Positions 2,302 through 15,200 of a stretch of 52,185 nucleotides of DNA are shown here, piece by piece. Origin of the DNA: Candidatus Thorarchaeota archaeon SMTZ1-45 (GTDB lineage: Archaea > Asgardarchaeota > Thorarchaeia > Thorarchaeales > Thorarchaeaceae); assembly GCA_001563335.1 (NCBI GenBank), contig LRSL01000089.1, positions 1-52,185 of the forward strand, read 5' to 3'. The notes beneath the pieces were generated by a model. The model worked only from the letters and a program-made list of their open reading frames with translations. It was not told where the DNA came from and made no database searches. The first letter of the stretch is position 1, and each line of letters opens with the position of its first letter. The translations under genes were made by a program, and so were the position numbers.

Positions 2302-3033
2302 ATGGCGTGTGATCGTTTGAAGAGCTCTGTAGATCGATTGCAAATTATTCGTTCAGGAACAACAATGCGTGATCCTGAAGTCTGGAAACTAGGGTTTAAT
2401 GGTCCTGAAATACGAGCATTGGAACAAGATCTTGGTGTGCTGAACTTAGCAACTGTCATTCTTGTGGAATCTGATGGGCTAAATATTCTGATTGACACAA
2501 GTTGGGAGGGCACGAGTGATGAAACAGTAGTGCCTATCGAGCAGAACAGGTTAGTCATGGAACTGAATTACTTTGGTGTTAAACCTGAAGATATTGATGA
2601 GATCTTTATTACCCACTGGCACTGGGACCACTGGGAGAACATCTACCTTTTCCCGCAAGCTCGTGTTTACTTTGCTGGTTGCCCGTCAAACTTTGTAAAA
2701 AAGAATCTAGGTATGATTTCAGCAGATAATGAGATTCTCAAACTCAATGAGAATGACGATTGGCACTCTGGACTGGAGATACTAAAAACAGATGGGCATT
2801 CAGACCACGACCACTCTTTGGTTATTCAATACAAGAATAAAACGTTCGTCGCAGCAGGTGACGCAATAGTTTCCAAGATGTATTACCACACTGATACATT
2901 CTTCCCAAATGATCGAGTAACTGACTTTCAAGAAGAACTTCAAGCCTCATTCAGGAAAATTGTCAACCGAGCAGACTTTATCATCCCAGGTCATGATGGT
3001 CCCTTTGTCAACTACAAAAAAGGGCAATATTAG
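2302..3033 (+). CDS. MBL-fold metallo-hydrolase
   Basis: THWHWDH (HxHxDH), GHS, AGDA and IIPGHD motifs. Start uncertain. Confidence 0.88.
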   Translation: MACDRLKSSVDRLQIIRSGTTMRDPEVWKLGFNGPEIRALEQDLGVLNLATVILVESDGLNILIDTSWEGTSDETVVPIEQNRLVMELNYFGVKPEDIDEIFITHWHWDHWENIYLFPQARVYFAGCPSNFVKKNLGMISADNEILKLNENDDWHSGLEILKTDGHSDHDHSLVIQYKNKTFVAAGDAIVSKMYYHTDTFFPNDRVTDFQEELQASFRKIVNRADFIIPGHDGPFVNYKKGQY

Positions 3034-3140
3034 AAGACCTCTTGCTGGTATGAAAAGTTGTAACAAAATTAGCCATCGCTCTTAAAATTAAACCTTTTAA
3101 GTAAGCCAAGTATCGGCATTCTTAACCTCTTTGAAGTGAG

Positions 3141-3494
3141 TTGTTACAGTTGTCCAAACAAGAAACGGAATCCGACACGGATAGAGAAAGCAGAAGTCTA
3201 AGGGACGAGCTATTAGGTCGGTTTGAACGTGATGAACTCGGCCTGAAACACCGAGAGATATCGGTCATGACCAGGCTGAGTACGGATATTGTCGAGATTC
3301 TAGACGCGTTGGTCGAACTGGAGATATTCAAGAGTCGGTCGGAAGTGGTAGCATCATTTGTTGAGAAAGCAATAATGGACCGCAAAAGTGTCTTTGACTC
3401 CATATCAAAGCAGGCAAGTGATATTACAAAGAAACGAGAGGCGGCAAAGCATCTGGCATTTCAAGCGATTCAATCCAAGAGCGAATCCGACTAA
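3141..3494 (+). CDS. Ribbon-helix-helix (CopG/MetJ-like) DNA-binding protein
   Basis: ISVMTRLSTDIVEILDALVELEIFKSRSEVVASFV matches the RHH pattern (strand, LD.LV, SRSE). Confidence 0.7.
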   Translation: MLQLSKQETESDTDRESRSLRDELLGRFERDELGLKHREISVMTRLSTDIVEILDALVELEIFKSRSEVVASFVEKAIMDRKSVFDSISKQASDITKKREAAKHLAFQAIQSKSESD

Positions 3495-3495
3495 A

Positions 3496-5046
3496 TCAAA
3501 AGATGTCTGTATAGCAATCGTTCGGGTAGTAATTCGCCGCCTCCTTATCGTGGTTAGGATACCAAACTTGTGCGAAGAAGGGGTTTCTCTTTGCAATCTC
3601 GTCATCATTCCACGGAGGCGCAAGACACTCTGGACACCAATGACCAGTCTTTAACACAAGATAGGGCGTTCCTTCGAACCTGTGATTGAATGCACATTTC
3701 CACATCAGATGGGTATACATGTCATTGTCCCATTGAGTAGAGAGAAGTTCCCCTCCACGGAAGTGGGCTGCTCCCTGAAGGTCACTTATTTCAAGAGAAT
3801 CCTTGGACTCGTCATATCCATGATCCAATCTGATCCACTCTGGTCTAAGATTGGGCATGTCTTGGTCATCCCAGTCACCAATGGCCTCGTATCTCTCATA
3901 GGACCCATAGAATGCAGATATTCTCCTATCGTTCCTGTTCTCATACCAATAGAGCGTGCCGTCTTTTCCTGAGACCATCTCTTTCATCCTTTTGTAGGCC
4001 ATTTTGCGAATGAAAGAACGTATGCCTGGTATCCTGTTCAGAAACGCAGCTACCCTCAGCACGAATGGGCGATTCTTCATCACTTGGTCATAATGGTCCT
4101 CCAGTGACTCTCCCCAATTGTGTATGTACTTGTTGAGAATCCAGCTATCCTCAAAATAATGGCAATGGAAATTCCTAAGAGCAAACCATTTTCGCTCCAT
4201 GATTTTCCGATAGTTTCCCATGCCAAGCATCATCATCATTCTTTCAACATATTCAATAAAGACGACTCTGCAGCTTGGGCCACCACCCATGTTGTAGACA
4301 CGACGCCAAAAATCTGAATCTTCAGGAACATCCAGACAGGTCACAAGTCCTCTTCCAGCATCAAAACATGTGTTCAGCTCGATACATGTGTCTATTGGCT
4401 GATGGAACATAATTGGGTCCATCAGGCTCATGGCATCTGGAATGGCGATGTATGTCTGTCTAAGAGACGCCCAATACTTTAATCCTGAATCAATAACAGC
4501 TCGTTCTCCTCGAATCTTGCATGTCGCATAGAAATCAAACACACTTGGTTTCAGGGGGTCTCCAACTCGACCCATATGGATGGACTGCAAGCGGTCACCA
4601 GTTTCTGCCACTGAGCCAACATAGACGAACTTGATGTGGTCCTGTCCCCCCACCTCATAGATGGCTTTGATTACGTGTTCAATTGCCCTTGTATTGACAG
4701 CCTCAGACATCTCTGGATTGTGATCTGCAGCAGGGGCAATGAATGCCATAGGAGAGAGAATCCAATCAACACCACGTACAGACTCAAGGACGTCTGAATA
4801 TTCTGTGGCATCACCCCAGACTATCTTGAAACCTTCCCCCTCCATGACACCATTTCCAGGTATACCAACCAATCCACATTGTCGTTCATAAGGGGCAAAA
4901 AGTTTCTTGTTCTTTTCAGAAGGTCGTAGCAAGAGAACGATGTTGTATTTCCGCTGACCATTTTCATCTATGCGAGTCCAGAGCTCCTTGAATGCAACAA
5001 AACCCATAGACCCAGATGCACCAAGTAACAAAACAATCTCTTTCAT
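3496..5046 (-). CDS. NAD-dependent epimerase/dehydratase (extended SDR) with a C-terminal zinc-ribbon
   Basis: LLGASGSMG Rossmann motif and YATCK (YxxxK). C-terminal WKCAFNH...HWCPEC. An alternative ATG is at 5073. Confidence 0.82.
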   Translation of the reverse strand: MKEIVLLLGASGSMGFVAFKELWTRIDENGQRKYNIVLLLRPSEKNKKLFAPYERQCGLVGIPGNGVMEGEGFKIVWGDATEYSDVLESVRGVDWILSPMAFIAPAADHNPEMSEAVNTRAIEHVIKAIYEVGGQDHIKFVYVGSVAETGDRLQSIHMGRVGDPLKPSVFDFYATCKIRGERAVIDSGLKYWASLRQTYIAIPDAMSLMDPIMFHQPIDTCIELNTCFDAGRGLVTCLDVPEDSDFWRRVYNMGGGPSCRVVFIEYVERMMMMLGMGNYRKIMERKWFALRNFHCHYFEDSWILNKYIHNWGESLEDHYDQVMKNRPFVLRVAAFLNRIPGIRSFIRKMAYKRMKEMVSGKDGTLYWYENRNDRRISAFYGSYERYEAIGDWDDQDMPNLRPEWIRLDHGYDESKDSLEISDLQGAAHFRGGELLSTQWDNDMYTHLMWKCAFNHRFEGTPYLVLKTGHWCPECLAPPWNDDEIAKRNPFFAQVWYPNHDKEAANYYPNDCYTDIF

Positions 5047-5106
5047 GGTGGCGCCTCTGAGATGAGTGCCCATCAGAGGGATATATTATGATATTGTTGA
5101 GGAATC

Positions 5107-5487
5107 TTACCCGTGTAAATCCGAGGGTTCCCATAATTCGATCTTGTTCCCCTCAGGATCCATAAACCATGCAAACTTACCCTCAGGTGTTTCTTGAACT
5201 CCCTTCTCATCCACCTCAACGCCTCTTGATTTCAAATCTGCAACTATCTCCTCAATGTCACTCACAACAAAGTTAATCATCCAGGTCGAGTCGCTTGGGC
5301 TGAAGTATTTCGTGTCTTCGGGAAATGGTCCCCACAGAGTATAGCCTGGTGCCTTCAGGTCTTTCCATTTGAAGTAGACATACCCCTCCTCATCGGGTTT
5401 CAAACCTAGATTCTCTTCGTACCATTTCTGAAGTTTCGTTTTGTTATTTGACTTGAAGAAGACTCCTCCAATTCCTCTCACTGTCAT
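5107..5487 (-). CDS. VOC/glyoxalase family protein
   Basis: VRGIGGVFFK, MINFVV and GKFAWFMDPEGNKIELWEP motifs. Confidence 0.92.
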   Translation of the reverse strand: MTVRGIGGVFFKSNNKTKLQKWYEENLGLKPDEEGYVYFKWKDLKAPGYTLWGPFPEDTKYFSPSDSTWMINFVVSDIEEIVADLKSRGVEVDEKGVQETPEGKFAWFMDPEGNKIELWEPSDLHG

Positions 5488-7252: not shown

Positions 7253-7984
7253 ATGCCAGCATCATGGGATGAAGTAGCATATGACTACCACAAGACTGTA
7301 GGTGAAACCGGGGATTCATACCATCGGACCTATGTCAATCCAGTAATTTTTGATATTCTAGGAAACATCAATGGATTAATAGTACTTGATCTTGCCTGTG
7401 GTCAGGGCTATCTTTCAAGAATACTCGCCCGCAAGGGAGCAAGGGTTGTTGGTATTGACATATCAGAAAAGATGCTTGAGATTGCTCAGAATTCCGAAAA
7501 AGCTGAACCTTTGGGCGTGAAATATATTCGATGCAATTCAGGGGATATGTCAGAGATTGCTGACGAATCCATTGACTGCATTGTTTCCACCTTTGGATTT
7601 CATGACATCAAAGAGATTGGCGCAACAATCGAGGAGTGCAGTCGTGTTCTCAAGAGTGGAGGAAAACTAGTATTTGCAATCCCACATCCCTTCACCTATG
7701 CACGACGAGTACAAGATGAGGAGGGCTACTATCTTCAGATTCGAGATTATATGTCAATCAAAGAAATCCCTCATCCCAAATACAAAGATACTGAAGTTGT
7801 AGCTTACCATCGACCCCTCTCCTATTACTTTGAGAGACTTTTCTCTGTTGGAATGCAGATAGTCGCTTTTAGAGAAGTTACAGCTGAGTTATCCAGGGGT
7901 CGACCAATCAAAGATAAACAACTTCTTGCGTACAAAAGGGAGATTCCAGGATTCCTCGTTGTAGGTCTGGTAAAAGTCATGTAG
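7253..7984 (+). CDS. Class I SAM-dependent methyltransferase
   Basis: VLDLACGQG, VVGIDISEKML and RVLKSGG motifs. Confidence 0.92.
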   Translation: MPASWDEVAYDYHKTVGETGDSYHRTYVNPVIFDILGNINGLIVLDLACGQGYLSRILARKGARVVGIDISEKMLEIAQNSEKAEPLGVKYIRCNSGDMSEIADESIDCIVSTFGFHDIKEIGATIEECSRVLKSGGKLVFAIPHPFTYARRVQDEEGYYLQIRDYMSIKEIPHPKYKDTEVVAYHRPLSYYFERLFSVGMQIVAFREVTAELSRGRPIKDKQLLAYKREIPGFLVVGLVKVM

Positions 7985-7995
7985 AGAATAGACTC

Positions 7996-8922
7996 TCAAG
8001 AAAAATGAGATAGTGGTTGACTTGCTGCTAGTCTTACAGGTTCTTCATCCCACTCACCAAAGTTCTGAGCAGCGAGTTTCAAATATCCAACTGAGTTTGG
8101 ATCTAGTCCAACATGCGAGGTGACAACAGCATCCAGCTCGAGAGTGTCATCACAACTCCATAGAACACCAGGATTTGTGAAGACTTGAGGTTCTAATGTC
8201 ATTCCGCTTGATGCACTATGAACTGCCTCCACAACTCCCCTAGTCTTGAACAGCGACCGATAGATCTTGTTCATGTCAATGATACTGGAATTCATTGCCT
8301 TGTTCATCTCTCCATGGAATTCTCCTCGATCCGGTCCTGGAATCATACCAAAGAGATTCTTTAGAGTCAAAGAGATGACAATATCCTCTCCCATGAATTT
8401 GAGCTTTGCAAGATTGAGAAGCGTTCCATCACTCATGTCGTATAACCGCTGAGGTACAAATGATGCCATCTTCTTCGTGAATAACGGTGCGTACGAATCC
8501 TCTACAATTCTTTGGATGGTTTCTTGTTCTACTACCCGACCTGCCCAGATCTCCTCTGTGATATTGATATACTCTACATCATGTTTTTCCAAGACCTTGT
8601 CAATTCCAGAGTATCGTAGAAACCATTTGTCAGAGTTGCGTAAAGCATCGCGGTCGAATGACCCGTACTTCTTCTGCTCTACTGCCTCTCTGCATCTGGC
8701 CCATCCATAGCTCTCAACGACGATAGCATCACCATCAATTGCAGTGAGTGTCCAATCTAAGACTGTCGCCTCAGTGAAGATGACAGAGAACCCCCAGTTT
8801 GGTTTAATGACCACAGGGGGTGTTAGGTCGAGGTCCTTGATGACCTCAATGAACGACTCTCTTTGAGTCCGATCCTGGAATGTAACGCGCCCGAATGTCC
8901 GAATACTGTCTTGCTGCATCAT
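7996..8922 (-). CDS. DUF362 domain protein
   Basis: VVIKPN, NLAKLK, SLTLKNLFGMIP and ELDAV...GLDP..VGYL motifs. Confidence 0.8.
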   Translation of the reverse strand: MMQQDSIRTFGRVTFQDRTQRESFIEVIKDLDLTPPVVIKPNWGFSVIFTEATVLDWTLTAIDGDAIVVESYGWARCREAVEQKKYGSFDRDALRNSDKWFLRYSGIDKVLEKHDVEYINITEEIWAGRVVEQETIQRIVEDSYAPLFTKKMASFVPQRLYDMSDGTLLNLAKLKFMGEDIVISLTLKNLFGMIPGPDRGEFHGEMNKAMNSSIIDMNKIYRSLFKTRGVVEAVHSASSGMTLEPQVFTNPGVLWSCDDTLELDAVVTSHVGLDPNSVGYLKLAAQNFGEWDEEPVRLAASQPLSHFS

Positions 8923-10680: not shown

Positions 10681-11607
10681 TTGAGGGGCATCAAGTTGAC
10701 ACGAGCAATAGTTGAGGTTGAGATACGAATTCTCTCAGACGGGAATGTTGAGAATTGGAGAGTCTTGGGAGAGGCTGGATTTACTGCCCTCGTCAAAGTC
10801 ACTTATGATGACACGAGCGAATTCCAATTCCTCTTTGATACAGGGGGAGGGACTCCCGCCTTGGAGCACAATGTGGGTGTTATGAAAGACACCTTGAAAC
10901 GAGATTTATCTCCTATTGAAATGATAGTCCTCAGTCATGGACATTGGGATCATACTGCAGGTTTGTTGAAAGTCATAGCGATGACTAAAAAACGAGTACC
11001 TGTCCTGTGTCATCCAGATGCACTCCTACATAAGATATTCACCTCTGATGACGGAAAGCGCCACGAAATCGGAATTCATGAGTACTACACCAAGTCTGAG
11101 CTTGAGTCTAGGACTGAGGTCATTGCCACTACAGAACCATATGCTATCGCTGATGGGATAATGACCACTGGTGTCGTTCCTCGTACTAATGCCTTTGAAA
11201 AGCTGACTGGACGCTTACAAAAGATTATGATTATTAGAGATGGAGAAGAAACCCCTGATTTGATTGAAGATGACCTCTCGGTTGTTTTCCACTTGAAAGA
11301 TGACTCAGTTGCAGTTCTTACAGGTTGCTGCCATTCTGGGATTGTCAACACAATCAGTCATGCGACAAAACTTACCGGGTCCTCATCTATTGTCGGTATC
11401 ATAGGTGGATTTCATCTCCACGACGCATCAAAGGAACGCTTGACCAGTACCGTTGAACATCTCGGTCATTACCCACTCTCTATAATTGCACCATGTCATT
11501 GCACAGGTCTTAGAGGTCGTTCTGCCCTCATGAATGCATTCGAGGGTCCATTCAAGGATATTGGTGTAGGCTCAGTAGTCAAGTTTGAGGCAAGACAGAC
11601 TGAATGA
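10681..11607 (+). CDS. MBL-fold hydrolase, COG1237-like (dihydropteroate synthase-related)
   Basis: LFDTG, VLSHGHWDHTAG, TGCCHSG, GGFHL and PCHCTG motifs. Confidence 0.85.
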   Translation: MRGIKLTRAIVEVEIRILSDGNVENWRVLGEAGFTALVKVTYDDTSEFQFLFDTGGGTPALEHNVGVMKDTLKRDLSPIEMIVLSHGHWDHTAGLLKVIAMTKKRVPVLCHPDALLHKIFTSDDGKRHEIGIHEYYTKSELESRTEVIATTEPYAIADGIMTTGVVPRTNAFEKLTGRLQKIMIIRDGEETPDLIEDDLSVVFHLKDDSVAVLTGCCHSGIVNTISHATKLTGSSSIVGIIGGFHLHDASKERLTSTVEHLGHYPLSIIAPCHCTGLRGRSALMNAFEGPFKDIGVGSVVKFEARQTE

Positions 11608-12653
11608 AGTCGCTGACCAAGTCCGCTATCATTCTTGCACCAGCAGTGTTCAAATGCAGATAATCAACATGAAGAGAGAAGCCTGCGCTCTTCGATATTG
11701 TATCCCAGCTTTTCCTGAGAAGATAGCGGTTGATGATAACCTTGATGATACCTAAGTAGTATCTCTCATAAGGATATGTTTGCCCTACCGGAGAATTCTG
11801 AAGTGATTCATTCATTCTCTCATGCAAGGGTGGTCAACAGCTGCTGAAACCTTTGACAAAGTTGGACATCCTTTAAATGATCGTTTGAGCCATTGTTGTA
11901 GGTCTTTAAATATCATTATCAGGCGACAGAACTCTGAGGTCGCCCGGACACGCACCTGACCTCGCAGAGTCCACCCAGTGCCGTTTCCTGGGAGTACAAC
12001 GCTCTGGTGTCCAAGATTGTACAACATACAATGAACGGTAGGTATGCAACATTCATTTCTTCAGCTATATGCTGTATAATGCTACTATACTCAGAACTCC
12101 TAATGAACGCTGGATGACTGAAATCCTCTCCAATTGGAGGAATTGAAAGGAGTGCAATTCTTGCATTTGTTTCTGTTCTAAGCCTCTTCACAAGTGATTG
12201 AAGGCAATCTTCATACCAACTCGAATCGGGATCTCTTGGAAGTTTCATTCTCATTACATAGCTCTTCATCGCATCTGAAGACATAGTAGCATTTACGTCA
12301 TCAGTACCAATGAGTACGGTAACAACATCCGGGTCGCACTGAATGACCTCTTCGACTCGTTGTAGATTGTTCCATGCAAGTTCAGAGTTTATACCTGCAT
12401 TAATGAACTCGAAAGACTCACTCTCGAATCTCTCCTGAACCATGTCTACATAGTTAACGCCAACTCTTCCGTGAGTTATGCTATCTCCCAAAAAGACTAC
12501 AACACTCTTTCGAACATCTTTCTGAGGATGTGCTCTTAGGTATGTTGAAGGAGTTTTTTCGGGTTTCTTCATTGACTGATAGAAGGCATATCCTGTGAGA
12601 GGAATAAGAACAAGAATGAGTAAACCAAACAAGAACAGGAGTTGCCCCAGCAT
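11579..12653 (-). pseudogene. SGNH/GDSL hydrolase interrupted by a 208-bp insertion
   Basis: The N-terminal part (12653-12037) has GDSIT, NAGIN and LIGTDD. The C-terminal part (11830-11579) has the catalytic D-YL-H-LN..GA motif. Removing 208 nt joins them in frame as ...VAYLPLHERM... Confidence 0.85.
11829..12039. mobile_element. Small non-coding structured insertion (205 bp plus a 3-bp GGT direct repeat)
   Basis: GGT occurs at 11829-11831 and 12037-12039. The insert breaks the GDSL frame, contains several nested inverted repeats and encodes no transposase. Confidence 0.65.
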
Positions 12654-12745
12654 AAGGACAGAACCCGCAAGTGGTTCTGATTAATCTTTGCAGAAATGTA
12701 ACATTGAACAACTCTTTTGAGTGATTTACCAACCAACAAGGAATC

Positions 12746-13219
12746 ATGTCCGATGAATACATCCAAGACTTTTGGCCTGAGGAAGGGACCTTTTGTTGGG
12801 GCTGTGGGAAAAACAACAAGCACGGTCTCCAGTTGAAGAGCTTTTGGAACGATGGTGAAACTGTAGCAGTATGGGAACCGAAGGAATACCACCTAGCTTT
12901 CCCCGGGATGCTAAATGGAGGAATCATTGCTACACTGATTGACTGCCATGGGACTGGAACTGCAAATGCAGCAGCTCACAAGGCTGCTGAAGGGTCAGCT
13001 CAACACATCATGTTTGTCACAGGCGGCATCTCTGTGAAATATCTTAGACCAACTCCCATTGACAAGCCTATCACACTCCGAGCAAGAATTACAGAGATAA
13101 GTGAAAAGAAGATCAAGGTTGCATGTGATCTCTATTCTGGAGATATGAGATGTGCGTCTGGGGAGGTGTTGACTGTCAAGGTCGATCTGGGACTTTTTCT
13201 GAAAATCGAAAAAAAGTGA
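12746..13219 (+). CDS. PaaI family thioesterase (hotdog fold)
   Basis: CWGCG.NN.HGL, AFPGMLNGGIIATLIDCH and VKYLRPTP motifs. Confidence 0.9.
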   Translation: MSDEYIQDFWPEEGTFCWGCGKNNKHGLQLKSFWNDGETVAVWEPKEYHLAFPGMLNGGIIATLIDCHGTGTANAAAHKAAEGSAQHIMFVTGGISVKYLRPTPIDKPITLRARITEISEKKIKVACDLYSGDMRCASGEVLTVKVDLGLFLKIEKK

Positions 13220-13391
13220 AATATTTCGCCATTTTTGAGTCCATTTGCGCATTTTGATAACAAAAGAGTCTGAAAAAGAGAATTAATAAGACAACTTGTT
13301 ATACGTTGGAGGTTGTTGCGAGGCAGAGTGGACAGTCGATTCCTGCGGATGTTGATTGATTGTTATAGTCGCAAACGGGAGTAGAGCCTCA

Positions 13392-15200
13392 ATGAATATT
13401 GAGAAGAAAGCATGTTTGCTAGTTGTATCACTTACTTTAGTGCTAGTCTTACTGAATGTAGTACCTGCGGTCGTGTCTTCATCTGGAGTTGATCATTCTC
13501 TTAGTGCATCTCGGAATGATTTCTCTTTGTCCCAAACCGGAACGATTGAACCTCTCGAAACAACAATTAATTTAGTGGGGACCCATGGCTCAGGAGGCTG
13601 GTATGTTTCAGATGTCACCGTCACATTCTCTGTGTTTAGTTCAGCAGACGAATACACTACTGCATATAGCTATGATGGTGAAAACTGGATCATCTATAGT
13701 GATGCCTTTGTGGTATCAACTGAGGGGGATACCACTATTTACTATAACTCAACTGACTCTTCTGGATTTATTGAAGGTACAAAGGAAGAAATAATTAGAA
13801 TTGATAAGACAGCTCCAGAACTCAACCTTGAAACAGAAAACGTTCCTGGTGAAGGTACTTTTGTAACATTGAGTGCAATTGAATATGGTTCTGGCCTTGC
13901 TAGTATTGCATACAGTCTTGATGGAAAACGTTTGGAACGCTATGTAGATCCCTTTAATATCTCTACTGAAGGTTTTCACACCGTTTTCTATCAGGCTCAA
14001 GATTTCGCTGGTAATTTAGCAACTAAGACTGAAACCATCGAAGTGATCATTGAACCTATCGCCATCCCAACAGAAGTTATCTACAAAGGTGACACATCAG
14101 GTGTTTATTCTGACCAGATTACTCTTAAAGCGCAGCTTATGGATTCGATGAATGATGTACCACTTGCTGATAGATTAATCAAATTCACAGTTGGAGCACA
14201 AACAATGACTGTGATCACCGACTCTGATGGAGTTGCATCTTGCTTATTAATCCTAGATCAACCAGCTGGGATTTATATGGTTTCTGCAACCTTTGAGGGC
14301 GAGATTGGGTACCTTGATTCATCAACCACTGCTGAGTTCGTTCTTGGAAAGGAGTCTGCAACCACTTATTATACTGGTCTGACAATCATTGAAGAAAAGG
14401 ATGAAACCTTAACCCTGATTGCCACTGTGTTCGAAGAAAATGATGGCTTCTTAGGTGACTTGACTAAGATCTATGTGACCTTTACACTCTATTCATCAGC
14501 TGATTCTTCTACACCTATCGATGTAATCGGTCCTATCATGGTCATGCCTACTGATATGGCAGGAGTTGGGATTGCCATTGCAGAAGTCCCTAACTTAGAT
14601 GAGGGAGAGTATCTGGTTGTTGTTAGTCTTTGTCCCGAATACAACTTTCACTACAGCAGTCCCGATTCGGATGCTGCTATTCTAACCATCTATGAACCTT
14701 CTCGAGGTAAAGCGACAGGTGCCGGTTGGATTCGTGACTCGGATGGAAACAAGGGGCATTTTGTCTTCCTTGTACAATACAGCTGCCGAGGAACTCTGAA
14801 GGGCTTTGCTTACTACACTGTTCGAATTGACAATCTAGTGTATTTTGTAAAGACTACTGAAATCACTGGATTCTCAATTGATGGGAATCATGCCTTCTTT
14901 GAAGCAATCTGTACAATCTATGTGATTAACTTAGATATGTGTGAGAAAATCCAACTAGAGGAGAGCTTTAGGCTTCGGATAGATGTTTGGGACTACAAGA
15001 AACGATGTAGAAATGATATCTTTCAGATTCAAATCTTTGACCAATACGGAGTGGTTGTGTATGAGGCTGGATTTGATCCTCTAGGTTATATACACCGAGG
15101 AAACATAGTAATCCATAGTTATCGATGGAAACATCACTCACACCACTATCATCATTGGAAGCATCGGTCGTGCTGCCATCATAAAATGCGGCATTGGTAA
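13392..15200 (+). CDS. Secreted Ig-like multi-domain protein with a His/Cys/Trp-rich C-terminal tail
   Basis: Signal peptide. GWY.SDVTV...EG..TIYY.S.D..G and IDKTAP Ig-like repeats, a GKATGAGWI beta domain, and the tail HSYRWKHHSHHYHHWKHRSCCHHKMRHW. Confidence 0.8.
   Translation: MNIEKKACLLVVSLTLVLVLLNVVPAVVSSSGVDHSLSASRNDFSLSQTGTIEPLETTINLVGTHGSGGWYVSDVTVTFSVFSSADEYTTAYSYDGENWIIYSDAFVVSTEGDTTIYYNSTDSSGFIEGTKEEIIRIDKTAPELNLETENVPGEGTFVTLSAIEYGSGLASIAYSLDGKRLERYVDPFNISTEGFHTVFYQAQDFAGNLATKTETIEVIIEPIAIPTEVIYKGDTSGVYSDQITLKAQLMDSMNDVPLADRLIKFTVGAQTMTVITDSDGVASCLLILDQPAGIYMVSATFEGEIGYLDSSTTAEFVLGKESATTYYTGLTIIEEKDETLTLIATVFEENDGFLGDLTKIYVTFTLYSSADSSTPIDVIGPIMVMPTDMAGVGIAIAEVPNLDEGEYLVVVSLCPEYNFHYSSPDSDAAILTIYEPSRGKATGAGWIRDSDGNKGHFVFLVQYSCRGTLKGFAYYTVRIDNLVYFVKTTEITGFSIDGNHAFFEAICTIYVINLDMCEKIQLEESFRLRIDVWDYKKRCRNDIFQIQIFDQYGVVVYEAGFDPLGYIHRGNIVIHSYRWKHHSHHYHHWKHRSCCHHKMRHW

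Follow-up and report, generated by a model that had tools for sequence, protein, structure and literature searches.

Insertion sequences (ISs) of the IS607 family are described, in the relevant part of one account (PMC6188088), as inserting at GG dinucleotides with a preference for (G)GG, as carrying GG at their termini, and as having neither inverted repeats nor target duplications. Such a rule fits a 2-bp crossover made by a serine recombinase. For one family member tested in E. coli, the pertinent sections of a preprint give TGGG as both the target and the transposon-adjacent motif (TAM) of the TnpB protein, report a right end ...TCGG with an omega-RNA scaffold ending ...UCGG, and describe position -3 as the base by which an empty site and the right end of the element itself can be told apart (bioRxiv 10.1101/2023.11.20.567912). 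PATEs, protein-less derivatives of IS200/IS605 elements, often encode omega RNAs that need TnpB in trans, according to the portion of their description that we draw on (bioRxiv 10.1101/2023.03.14.532601). Here we analyze a window of 52,185 nt, the stretch 1 to 52,185 of contig LRSL01000089.1 from the Asgard archaeon Candidatus Thorarchaeota archaeon SMTZ1-45, in which 208 nt interrupt a gene for a GDSL/SGNH hydrolase. The insert is very probably a protein-less miniature derivative (a miniature inverted-repeat transposable element, MITE) of an IS607-family insertion sequence, and its structured right end is a candidate guide RNA.

Results

A precise insertion in a GDSL hydrolase gene

On the minus strand the sequence reads ...GTT GCA TAC CTA CC/GTTCATTG...GTTGACCACC/C TTG CAT GAG, the slashes marking the ends of a 208-nt insert (12036..11829) that cuts the hydrolase gene to the base. 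The N-terminal frame, from the ATG at 12653, enters the insert and meets a stop at 11919, giving an open reading frame (ORF) of 244 amino acids (aa). The C-terminal part resumes after ...GTTGACCACC in a different frame (...CCC TTG CAT) and ends at 11579. The N-terminal part matches Pfam Lipase_GDSL_2 (1.6e-15), and the block-V D-x-x-H motif (HVDYLH) lies on the C-terminal part in alignment A1. Removal of 208 nt joins the gene as ...CTACCCTTG... and gives V-A-Y-L-P-L-H-E-R-M. Against the 10 full-length homologues of A1 (283-290 aa), the N-terminal part ends ...YL and the C-terminal part begins PLHE, with no column missing or extra. Removal of 205 nt is also in frame, but it leaves an extra proline that is seen in no homologue. 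There are no stops and no frameshifts in either half.

The hydrolase is well represented in related organisms. A protein search with the N-terminal part returned 471 proteins at E<=0.001, the best full-length ones being 283-290 aa long and up to 72% identical, and several of the best full-length homologues carry Thorarchaeota names. No second copy of the hydrolase was found in the window's own assembly. Matches at E<=1e-30 occur in 16 of the 27 other genomes of the genus. They contain no internal stops and are open frames of 280-325 aa, except for one of 239 aa at a contig end. Y-L-P-[LV]-H-E is unbroken in 9/9 same-genus orthologue loci that we read.

These comparisons bear out what an earlier note, made from the letters of this DNA alone, had claimed about the gene. 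A 208-bp insertion does lie precisely inside it, as the exact abutment of Y-L and P-L-H-E with ten homologues demonstrates. Its deletion does restore VAYLPLHERM and reconnect the D..H C-terminus, in agreement with A1 and the nine unbroken orthologues, and both halves are otherwise intact. The same note had seen ACC at both ends of the insert, and neither a transposase nor a clean terminal inverted repeat inside it, and we find likewise. ACC stands directly before the insert (12039..12037) and again as its last three bases (11831..11829), so that the cut can slide over four registers. None of the insert's ORFs has a Pfam match, and its ends, GGTnnnnAACAG... and ...CAATGAAC, are not inverted copies of one another.

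A family of copies with a common target

The insert is one member of a repeat family. A BLAST search with the 208 nt (E<=0.01) through the window's own and related genomes, of the kind that the earlier note had proposed for finding other copies, gave matches in 49 of the 86 genomes of the same taxonomic family and in 13 of its 16 genera, the window's genome counted. These matches are often many per genome and often lie at contig ends. With the 112 nt of the right end as the query, BLAST found matches in 43 of 400 genomes of the phylum and in 42 of the 85 other genomes of the family; at BLAST sensitivity there were none in 314 genomes from the 32 other families of the phylum. We fetched 59 loci and searched them by nhmmer with a profile built from the first copies, which gave 67 matches, 57 of them near-complete. 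The near-complete copies, 58 with that of the window, are 175-217 nt long, and in the sense of the hydrolase gene (gene sense) all 58 start with GTTCATTG and end with ...CTGTTnnnnACC.

Most copies lie outside genes. Removal of each in silico restored, for 14 of the 58, a frame that extends for 40 codons or more to either side, five in the orientation seen in the window and nine in the opposite one; the other 44 look intergenic or sit at gene ends. Seven of the frame-restoring candidates were checked against Pfam. A DUF763 gene (profile positions 1-218 and 249-319 on the two sides) and an ADP-ribosylglycohydrolase gene (5-111 and 120-287) are clearly split, each by a copy in the opposite orientation. 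The SurE and HAD candidates have a Pfam match on one side of the copy only, one copy lies at the very end of a carbamoyltransferase gene, and two candidates have no Pfam match.

Some copies are clustered. Contig C139 of genome G036 carries an inverted pair 6.6 kb apart (5071-5277, plus strand; 11909-12108, minus strand), contig C8 of G030 has copies at 7955-8154 and 14074-14281, both on the plus strand, and contig C50 of G041 has three in about 22 kb. Clusters of this kind, with copies a few kb apart, might represent a composite unit or mark a variable region.

The flanks of the copies follow a clear rule. In the 57 of 58 copies that were usable, read in gene sense, the 5' flank has A at -3 in 52, C at -2 in 55 and C at -1 in all 57, and the 3' flank has C at +1 in 54 and T at +2 in 34; the end of the element was set by looking for ACC, so that its own last three bases are not independent of this tally. 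Positions farther out show no preference. In IS orientation, the four bases that lead into the element at the left junction are AGGG in 31 copies, TGGG in 12, GGGG in 10 and some other 4-mer in 4 (n=57). One of the first three thus occurs in 53/57 copies, and GG follows again beyond the right end. The element itself closes with ...AACGG, and the 4-mer at the right end is ACGG. In the window the two junctions read (A)G-GG-T...element...AAC-GG-T in the orientation of the parent IS. The ACC at the ends of the insert is a fixed CC/GG core, common to element and target, together with a preferred A, and is a property of the whole family.

In 19 copies compared by eye, the repeat shared between flank and element end measures 2-5 nt, except for 9 nt at L018 and 12 nt at L021. 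The sequence before the element repeats its last 12 nt at L021 (G056:C279, element 1406-1612) and its last 9 nt at L018 (G030:C8, element 1501-1706); in both, read in IS orientation, the first bases of a left end follow the right end. These long repeats could be the remnant of a tandem insertion at the GG of an existing element, or of a circle junction.

Autonomous relatives and family assignment

Five copy-rich genomes were searched for recombinases. Resolvase-domain genes are present in three of them and TnpB zinc-ribbon domains in all five, and matches to the element profile adjoin tnpB genes: the ~62 nt that open the element in gene sense lie, reversed, directly after the tnpB stop codon, and its last ~65 nt lie upstream of a resolvase gene. 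At locus L099 (G051:C24, 2175-5362), 3188 bp are enclosed between two end matches, found by nhmmer and with ends that we read directly. This element starts GGTGGTATACAGC... and ends ...TTGTACAACTTACAATGAAC, followed by GGT. Its 200-aa protein (2246-2848) has an HTH_17/MerR domain at residues 1-48 and a Resolvase domain at 65-196, and passes the NCBIfam equivalog NF033518, 'IS607 family transposase', with 160.5 bits against a cut-off of 110. Its second protein is a TnpB of 504 aa, the end of which lies 29 nt before the right end. An ORF of 320 aa runs antisense between tnpA and tnpB (2851-3813, minus strand); it has no Pfam or NCBIfam match and may be a passenger gene.

Two further loci carry related elements. 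L100 holds an element with the same ends, in which the resolvase frame contains a stop. L085 is a 365-nt deletion derivative in which the final 100 codons of tnpB stand between a left end and a right end; it illustrates how such elements shrink. An nhmmer match at 69-202 in L085, tried as a homologue of the interior, turned out on reading to be mostly left end beside the tnpB fragment. An IS607-like element on contig C57 of genome G014 was set aside as a relative, as it has no ends like those of the miniature family.

The ends, the target and these autonomous relatives together place the insert in the IS607 family. Where the earlier note had seen a non-autonomous mobile element of unrecognised type, the first half of that description stands, and the type can now be named. 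Of the two meanings that the note had offered for ACC, the recombinase core holds (CC in 55-57 of 57 copies), whereas a 3-bp target duplication does not, the A being merely preferred (52/57). The search for an autonomous parent led to a relative with the same ends, a serine transposase and TnpB. The short subterminal repeats near both ends (Table 1) are probably binding sites for the transposase.

A miniature element of another family would be a different explanation, either a PATE of IS200/IS605 type, which a Y1 transposase would mobilize in single-stranded form, or an element of IS110 type. The lack of inverted repeats and of a duplication, the motif in the left flank, the link to TnpB and the presence of hairpins would all suit IS605. 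The relative with matching ends, however, carries an IS607 serine recombinase and not Y1 (the genomes themselves were not searched for Y1), and the same dinucleotide stands at both junctions and in the target, as it should after a 2-bp serine-recombinase crossover. Flanks that are random beyond 4 nt are likewise unlike the long programmed targets of IS110. We regard an origin in either of these families as quite improbable, although a second enzyme might make use of the same ends.

Table 1. Positions of the hydrolase parts, the insert and the features of the insert in the window
Feature	Position	Strand	Basis or remark
Hydrolase, N-terminal part	12037..12653	-	205 codons + 2 bases of the split Pro codon; ORF list, Pfam, homologues
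Hydrolase, C-terminal part	11579..11828	-	last base of the Pro codon + 82 codons + stop; carries D-x-x-H
Miniature element, very probably IS607 family	11829..12036	+ (parent IS orientation; left end 11829, right end 12036)	multi-copy family; ends match L099
Left-junction GG core	11829..11830	+	with G 11828 and A 11827 forms AGGG, the target/TAM-like 4-mer; flank tallies, IS607 GG rule
Right-junction GG core	12037..12038	+	CC of ACC on the gene strand; flank tallies
Left-end subterminal repeats TTGACAA / TTGGACA	11853..11868	+	kept in alignment A3; present in autonomous ends
Inverted counterparts TGTCCAA / TGTACAA	12008-12025		as for the left-end repeats
TATA-like box TTTAAATA	11905..11912	+	124 nt before the right end
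Structured RNA-like module, candidate omega-RNA scaffold	11925..12036	+	pair counts, G-U bias, covariance model R1
Helix A	11936-11941/11958-11963	+	
Helix B	11965-11970/12001-12006	+	
Helix C	11974-11978/11988-11992	+	
Pseudoknot D	11994-11997/12019-12022	+	
Flank that would be the guide	12039..12058	+	by analogy with IS607-family TnpB, with a scaffold ending at the right-end ...CGG as described in part of bioRxiv 10.1101/2023.11.20.567912; length arbitrary

A structured right end

In characterized TnpB systems the omega RNA is encoded at the 3' end of tnpB, at the right end of the element. In the miniature family, too, the 112 nt at the right end are the best conserved part. We drew a structure by hand on the right-end alignment of the 58 copies, with four helices, one of them a pseudoknot, and 21 pairs. 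It replaced an RNAalifold prediction on the full-length MAFFT alignment, which had yielded one helix only and had misaligned loops. Single-sequence folds of the region are not better than shuffles (z -1.74, -0.33), and were uninformative before the copies were compared.

The copies support the drawn pairs. Pairing holds in 93.3% of 1211 cells, against 28.8-42.7% when partners are slid by 1-3 columns, and two-sided changes occur in 50 cells, against 12.3 +/- 2.8 in shuffles, with 0/500 shuffles reaching the observed value. The pseudoknot pair 83:109 is UA in 25 copies, GC in 17 and CG in 12, and the pair 61:80 is CG in 48 and UA in 9. There are 75 G-U cells on the IS-sense strand, with U-G in 35/58 copies at pair 19:43; in helices B-D, three doubtful pairs left out, 30 G-U cells stand against 7 A-C cells. 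These wobble pairs place the structure on the IS-sense strand, antisense to the hydrolase.

The same module closes larger elements. Covariance model R1 gave 15 matches (13 distinct tnpB 3' ends) in 35 tnpB or resolvase loci, and each of these covers the whole model (1-112) on the tnpB-sense strand and stops at the right end ...CAATGAAC. In the window's own genome R1 matches the element and three tnpB 3' ends, and two of the three tnpB genes have long open frames.

These three ends lie on contigs C15 (25279-25512), C36 (2438-2671) and C69 (134465-134632) of that genome (G000). The genes are 47-73% identical to the TnpB of the autonomous relative, and their right ends close with ...CAATGAAC. The copy on C69 is shortened, and GA, not GG, follows its right end.

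A TATA-like box precedes the module. TTTAWATA is found in 50 of the 58 copies, without a mismatch in 22 and with a single one in 28; it ends 122-127 nt short of the right end and ~24 nt before helix A. Shorter subfamilies have no spacer between the left end and the box, and have kept both box and module. It is probable that the 112-nt module is a stand-alone omega (guide) RNA. The fuller reading, in which the element consists of a left end, a putative promoter, an omega-RNA gene and a right end, with transcription from the box towards the module and use of the product by TnpB, seems to us somewhat better than an even prospect.

Several observations weigh against this interpretation of the insert. 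It is single-copy in the window's own genome, where BLAST found itself and 15-22-nt chance matches. No serine recombinase gene was found there either (0 matches in an assembly that is 87.72% complete), and the copy may therefore be stranded in this organism. Among the five genomes searched, one apparently intact autonomous relative has matching ends, and its interior differs from the miniature element, which makes it a relative and not a proven parent. With regard to the RNA, kinship among copies can inflate shuffle tests, one subfamily is misaligned in helix A and lowers pairing there to 84%, helix B is poorly kept in tnpB-linked right ends, and the sequence of the TATA-like box does not reveal in which direction it points. 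Finally, the junction at 11828/11829 is bridged solely by a contig of the probable source run.

Intron and assembly artefact

An intron-like element removed at the RNA level had also been put forward in the earlier note. A bulge-helix-bulge intron, a small self-splicing ribozyme or an IStron-like element would be cut from the hydrolase mRNA, and the gene would stay functional. An interruption exact to the base, two intact halves and a highly structured element are all what such an intron would show, and fusions of IS607 or IS605 elements with group I introns (IStrons) splice out of host transcripts, as the corresponding sections of one preprint describe (bioRxiv 10.1101/2023.11.20.567912). Against this reading, an Rfam scan of 11000-13000 at E<=10 matched no intron or ribozyme family, and the fold of the region, as noted above, is no better than that of shuffles. 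The rules for group I fail, as the 5' exon ends in C or A and the insert never ends in G, and those for group II fail for want of GUGYG...AY. In archaeal bulge-helix-bulge motifs, two 3-nt bulges separated by a 4-bp helix mark the splice sites; by eye, no 4-bp central helix with 3-nt bulges forms in any of the four registers.

The copies elsewhere argue in the same direction. Their flanks are unrelated beyond the 3-4 target bases, so that no general pairing between exon and intron is possible, and the G-U pairs assign the structure to the strand that is antisense to the hydrolase. The majority of copies lie between genes, and the genic ones occur in both orientations, as expected of a DNA transposon and not of a spliced element. 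We therefore consider an intron very improbable.

The Rfam scan of 11000-13000 gave three sub-threshold matches, toga_FSE, DUF2693-FD and CrcZ, which we treated as chance. The toga_FSE match (a togavirus frameshift hairpin; 11826-11873, plus strand) scored 26.2 bits against a gathering score of 40, and the junction and the left-end repeat together make up its hairpin.

Contigs of four public runs were aligned to 11330-12540. In the probable source run, one contig with 0 differences extends across 11425-12540, and hence across both junctions. From other studies, two runs supply contigs X2 (11875-12243) and X3 (11923-12330), which cross 12036/12037, also with 0 differences, so that this junction exists in independent data. 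No empty site is present among the contigs of the four runs; contigs drop rare variants and are uninformative on excision. Contig depth increases by a factor of three to six over 11926-12040. Several further contigs agree with this stretch alone and diverge at 12039/12040, a sign that a portion of the insert is repetitive in the community. Repeats are a known source of misjoins, and the extra depth and the many loose ends would suit a chimeric assembly in which the repeat was wrongly stitched into the hydrolase gene, but the contigs that span the junctions without a difference, and an insertion that fits the target rule of the family exactly, as a random misjoin would not, make this third possibility from the earlier note extremely unlikely.

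Elsewhere in the window, an ORF of 614 aa on the plus strand (13356-15200) has a signal-like N-terminus, repeated beta-rich segments and a His/Cys-rich tail (...HSYRWKHHSHHYHHWKHRSCCHHKMRHW).

Discussion

The hydrolase gene is disrupted by a mobile element and most likely inactivated. The ORF that remains at the N-terminal side has no D-x-x-H block, and there is no sign that the interruption is mended in the RNA. That both halves are otherwise intact can be explained by the conservative nature of insertion by serine recombinases and by the insertion probably being recent. For annotation, the hydrolase is best described as one gene disrupted by a mobile element, neither as two genes nor as a gene that bears an intron. 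An apparent intron in a protein-coding gene, which would have been a striking claim, is thereby removed from Asgard biology.

The features of the family suggest a course of events. A TnpA transposase of the serine-recombinase type, supplied in trans, would have inserted the element at the DNA level, with crossover at the CC/GG dinucleotide in the proline codon of ...CTA CCC TTG.... As recombination of the IS607 type is conservative, the gene halves would be left unchanged, and precise excision would restore the gene. From its parent the element may have kept the left end, about 45-65 nt with repeats of the TTGGACA type, then the TATA-like box, and the last ~112 nt, which combine the 3' end of tnpB with the right end. 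A transcript of the omega RNA would continue past the right end and into the flank. TnpB from another locus of the genome could use this transcript to cut the empty site (AGGG followed by the flank), and retention of the element would be favored.

It is tempting to go one step further. These elements might be selfish transposons that consist of guide RNA only: a unit of ~200 nt that has its own archaeal promoter and an optimized omega-RNA scaffold and depends on other elements for the serine transposase and for TnpB, and each copy of which arms TnpB against its own empty site. We offer this as a tentative proposal that we think has a smaller chance of being right than of being wrong. If it is true, copies could also be recruited to regulate the genes that they face, by RNA guidance or by antisense action, and in the window the RNA would read antisense into the hydrolase. 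Its spread through about half of one Asgard family would also offer an example from nature of a guide and a nuclease that evolve as mobile units in their own right.

Many Thorarchaeota-like genomes have contigs and genes that are broken by the elements of about 200 nt described here. For the study of TnpB and OMEGA systems, the 58 aligned copies and the tnpB-linked ends provide a compact and well-sampled archaeal set. From the natural variation in it one can read a candidate omega-RNA scaffold, an NGGG TAM-like motif and a contrast between self and non-self (ACGG at the right end). In the full-text literature on MITEs in Asgard archaea or Thorarchaeota and on IS607 in Asgard archaea (supplementary files lay outside the search), we found no description of the element.

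Comparison with known systems

Classical MITEs are, like the element described here, short, non-coding and multi-copy, and derive from an IS by internal deletion. They differ from it in that it has neither terminal inverted repeats nor a target-site duplication, and the term MITE is used loosely here. With IStrons it shares ends of IS607 type, a TGGG-like target and the exact interruption of a host gene. Unlike them it contains no group I intron by Rfam, and at 208 nt it has no room for one beside its ends; it is also antisense to its host gene.

PATEs, as the part of their description that we draw on presents them, resemble it in being minimal elements, with two ends and a guide-RNA-like module that needs TnpB and transposase in trans. 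On the same partial description, however, theirs is a single-strand transposition by Y1 (HUH) enzymes with palindromic ends, whereas the element in the window has ends of the serine-recombinase type and a GG core, and adds a TATA-like box that could drive an RNA on its own.

The IS607/IS1535 elements agree with it in most respects. Both ends and the target share a GG core, and (G)GG or NGGG is preferred. There are no terminal inverted repeats and no target duplication, short repeats lie subterminally, and the right end reads ...CGG. The relatives of the element encode a serine transposase with its helix-turn-helix first (NF033518), and TnpB. It departs from IS607/IS1535 in carrying no genes, in measuring 208 nt against about 1.7-3.2 kb, in its Thorarchaeota-like Asgard host, and in end sequences that are specific to one taxonomic family. 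To a known family of mobile DNA, this locus thus appears to add an apparently promoter-equipped, guide-RNA-only derivative that has spread through one Asgard family.

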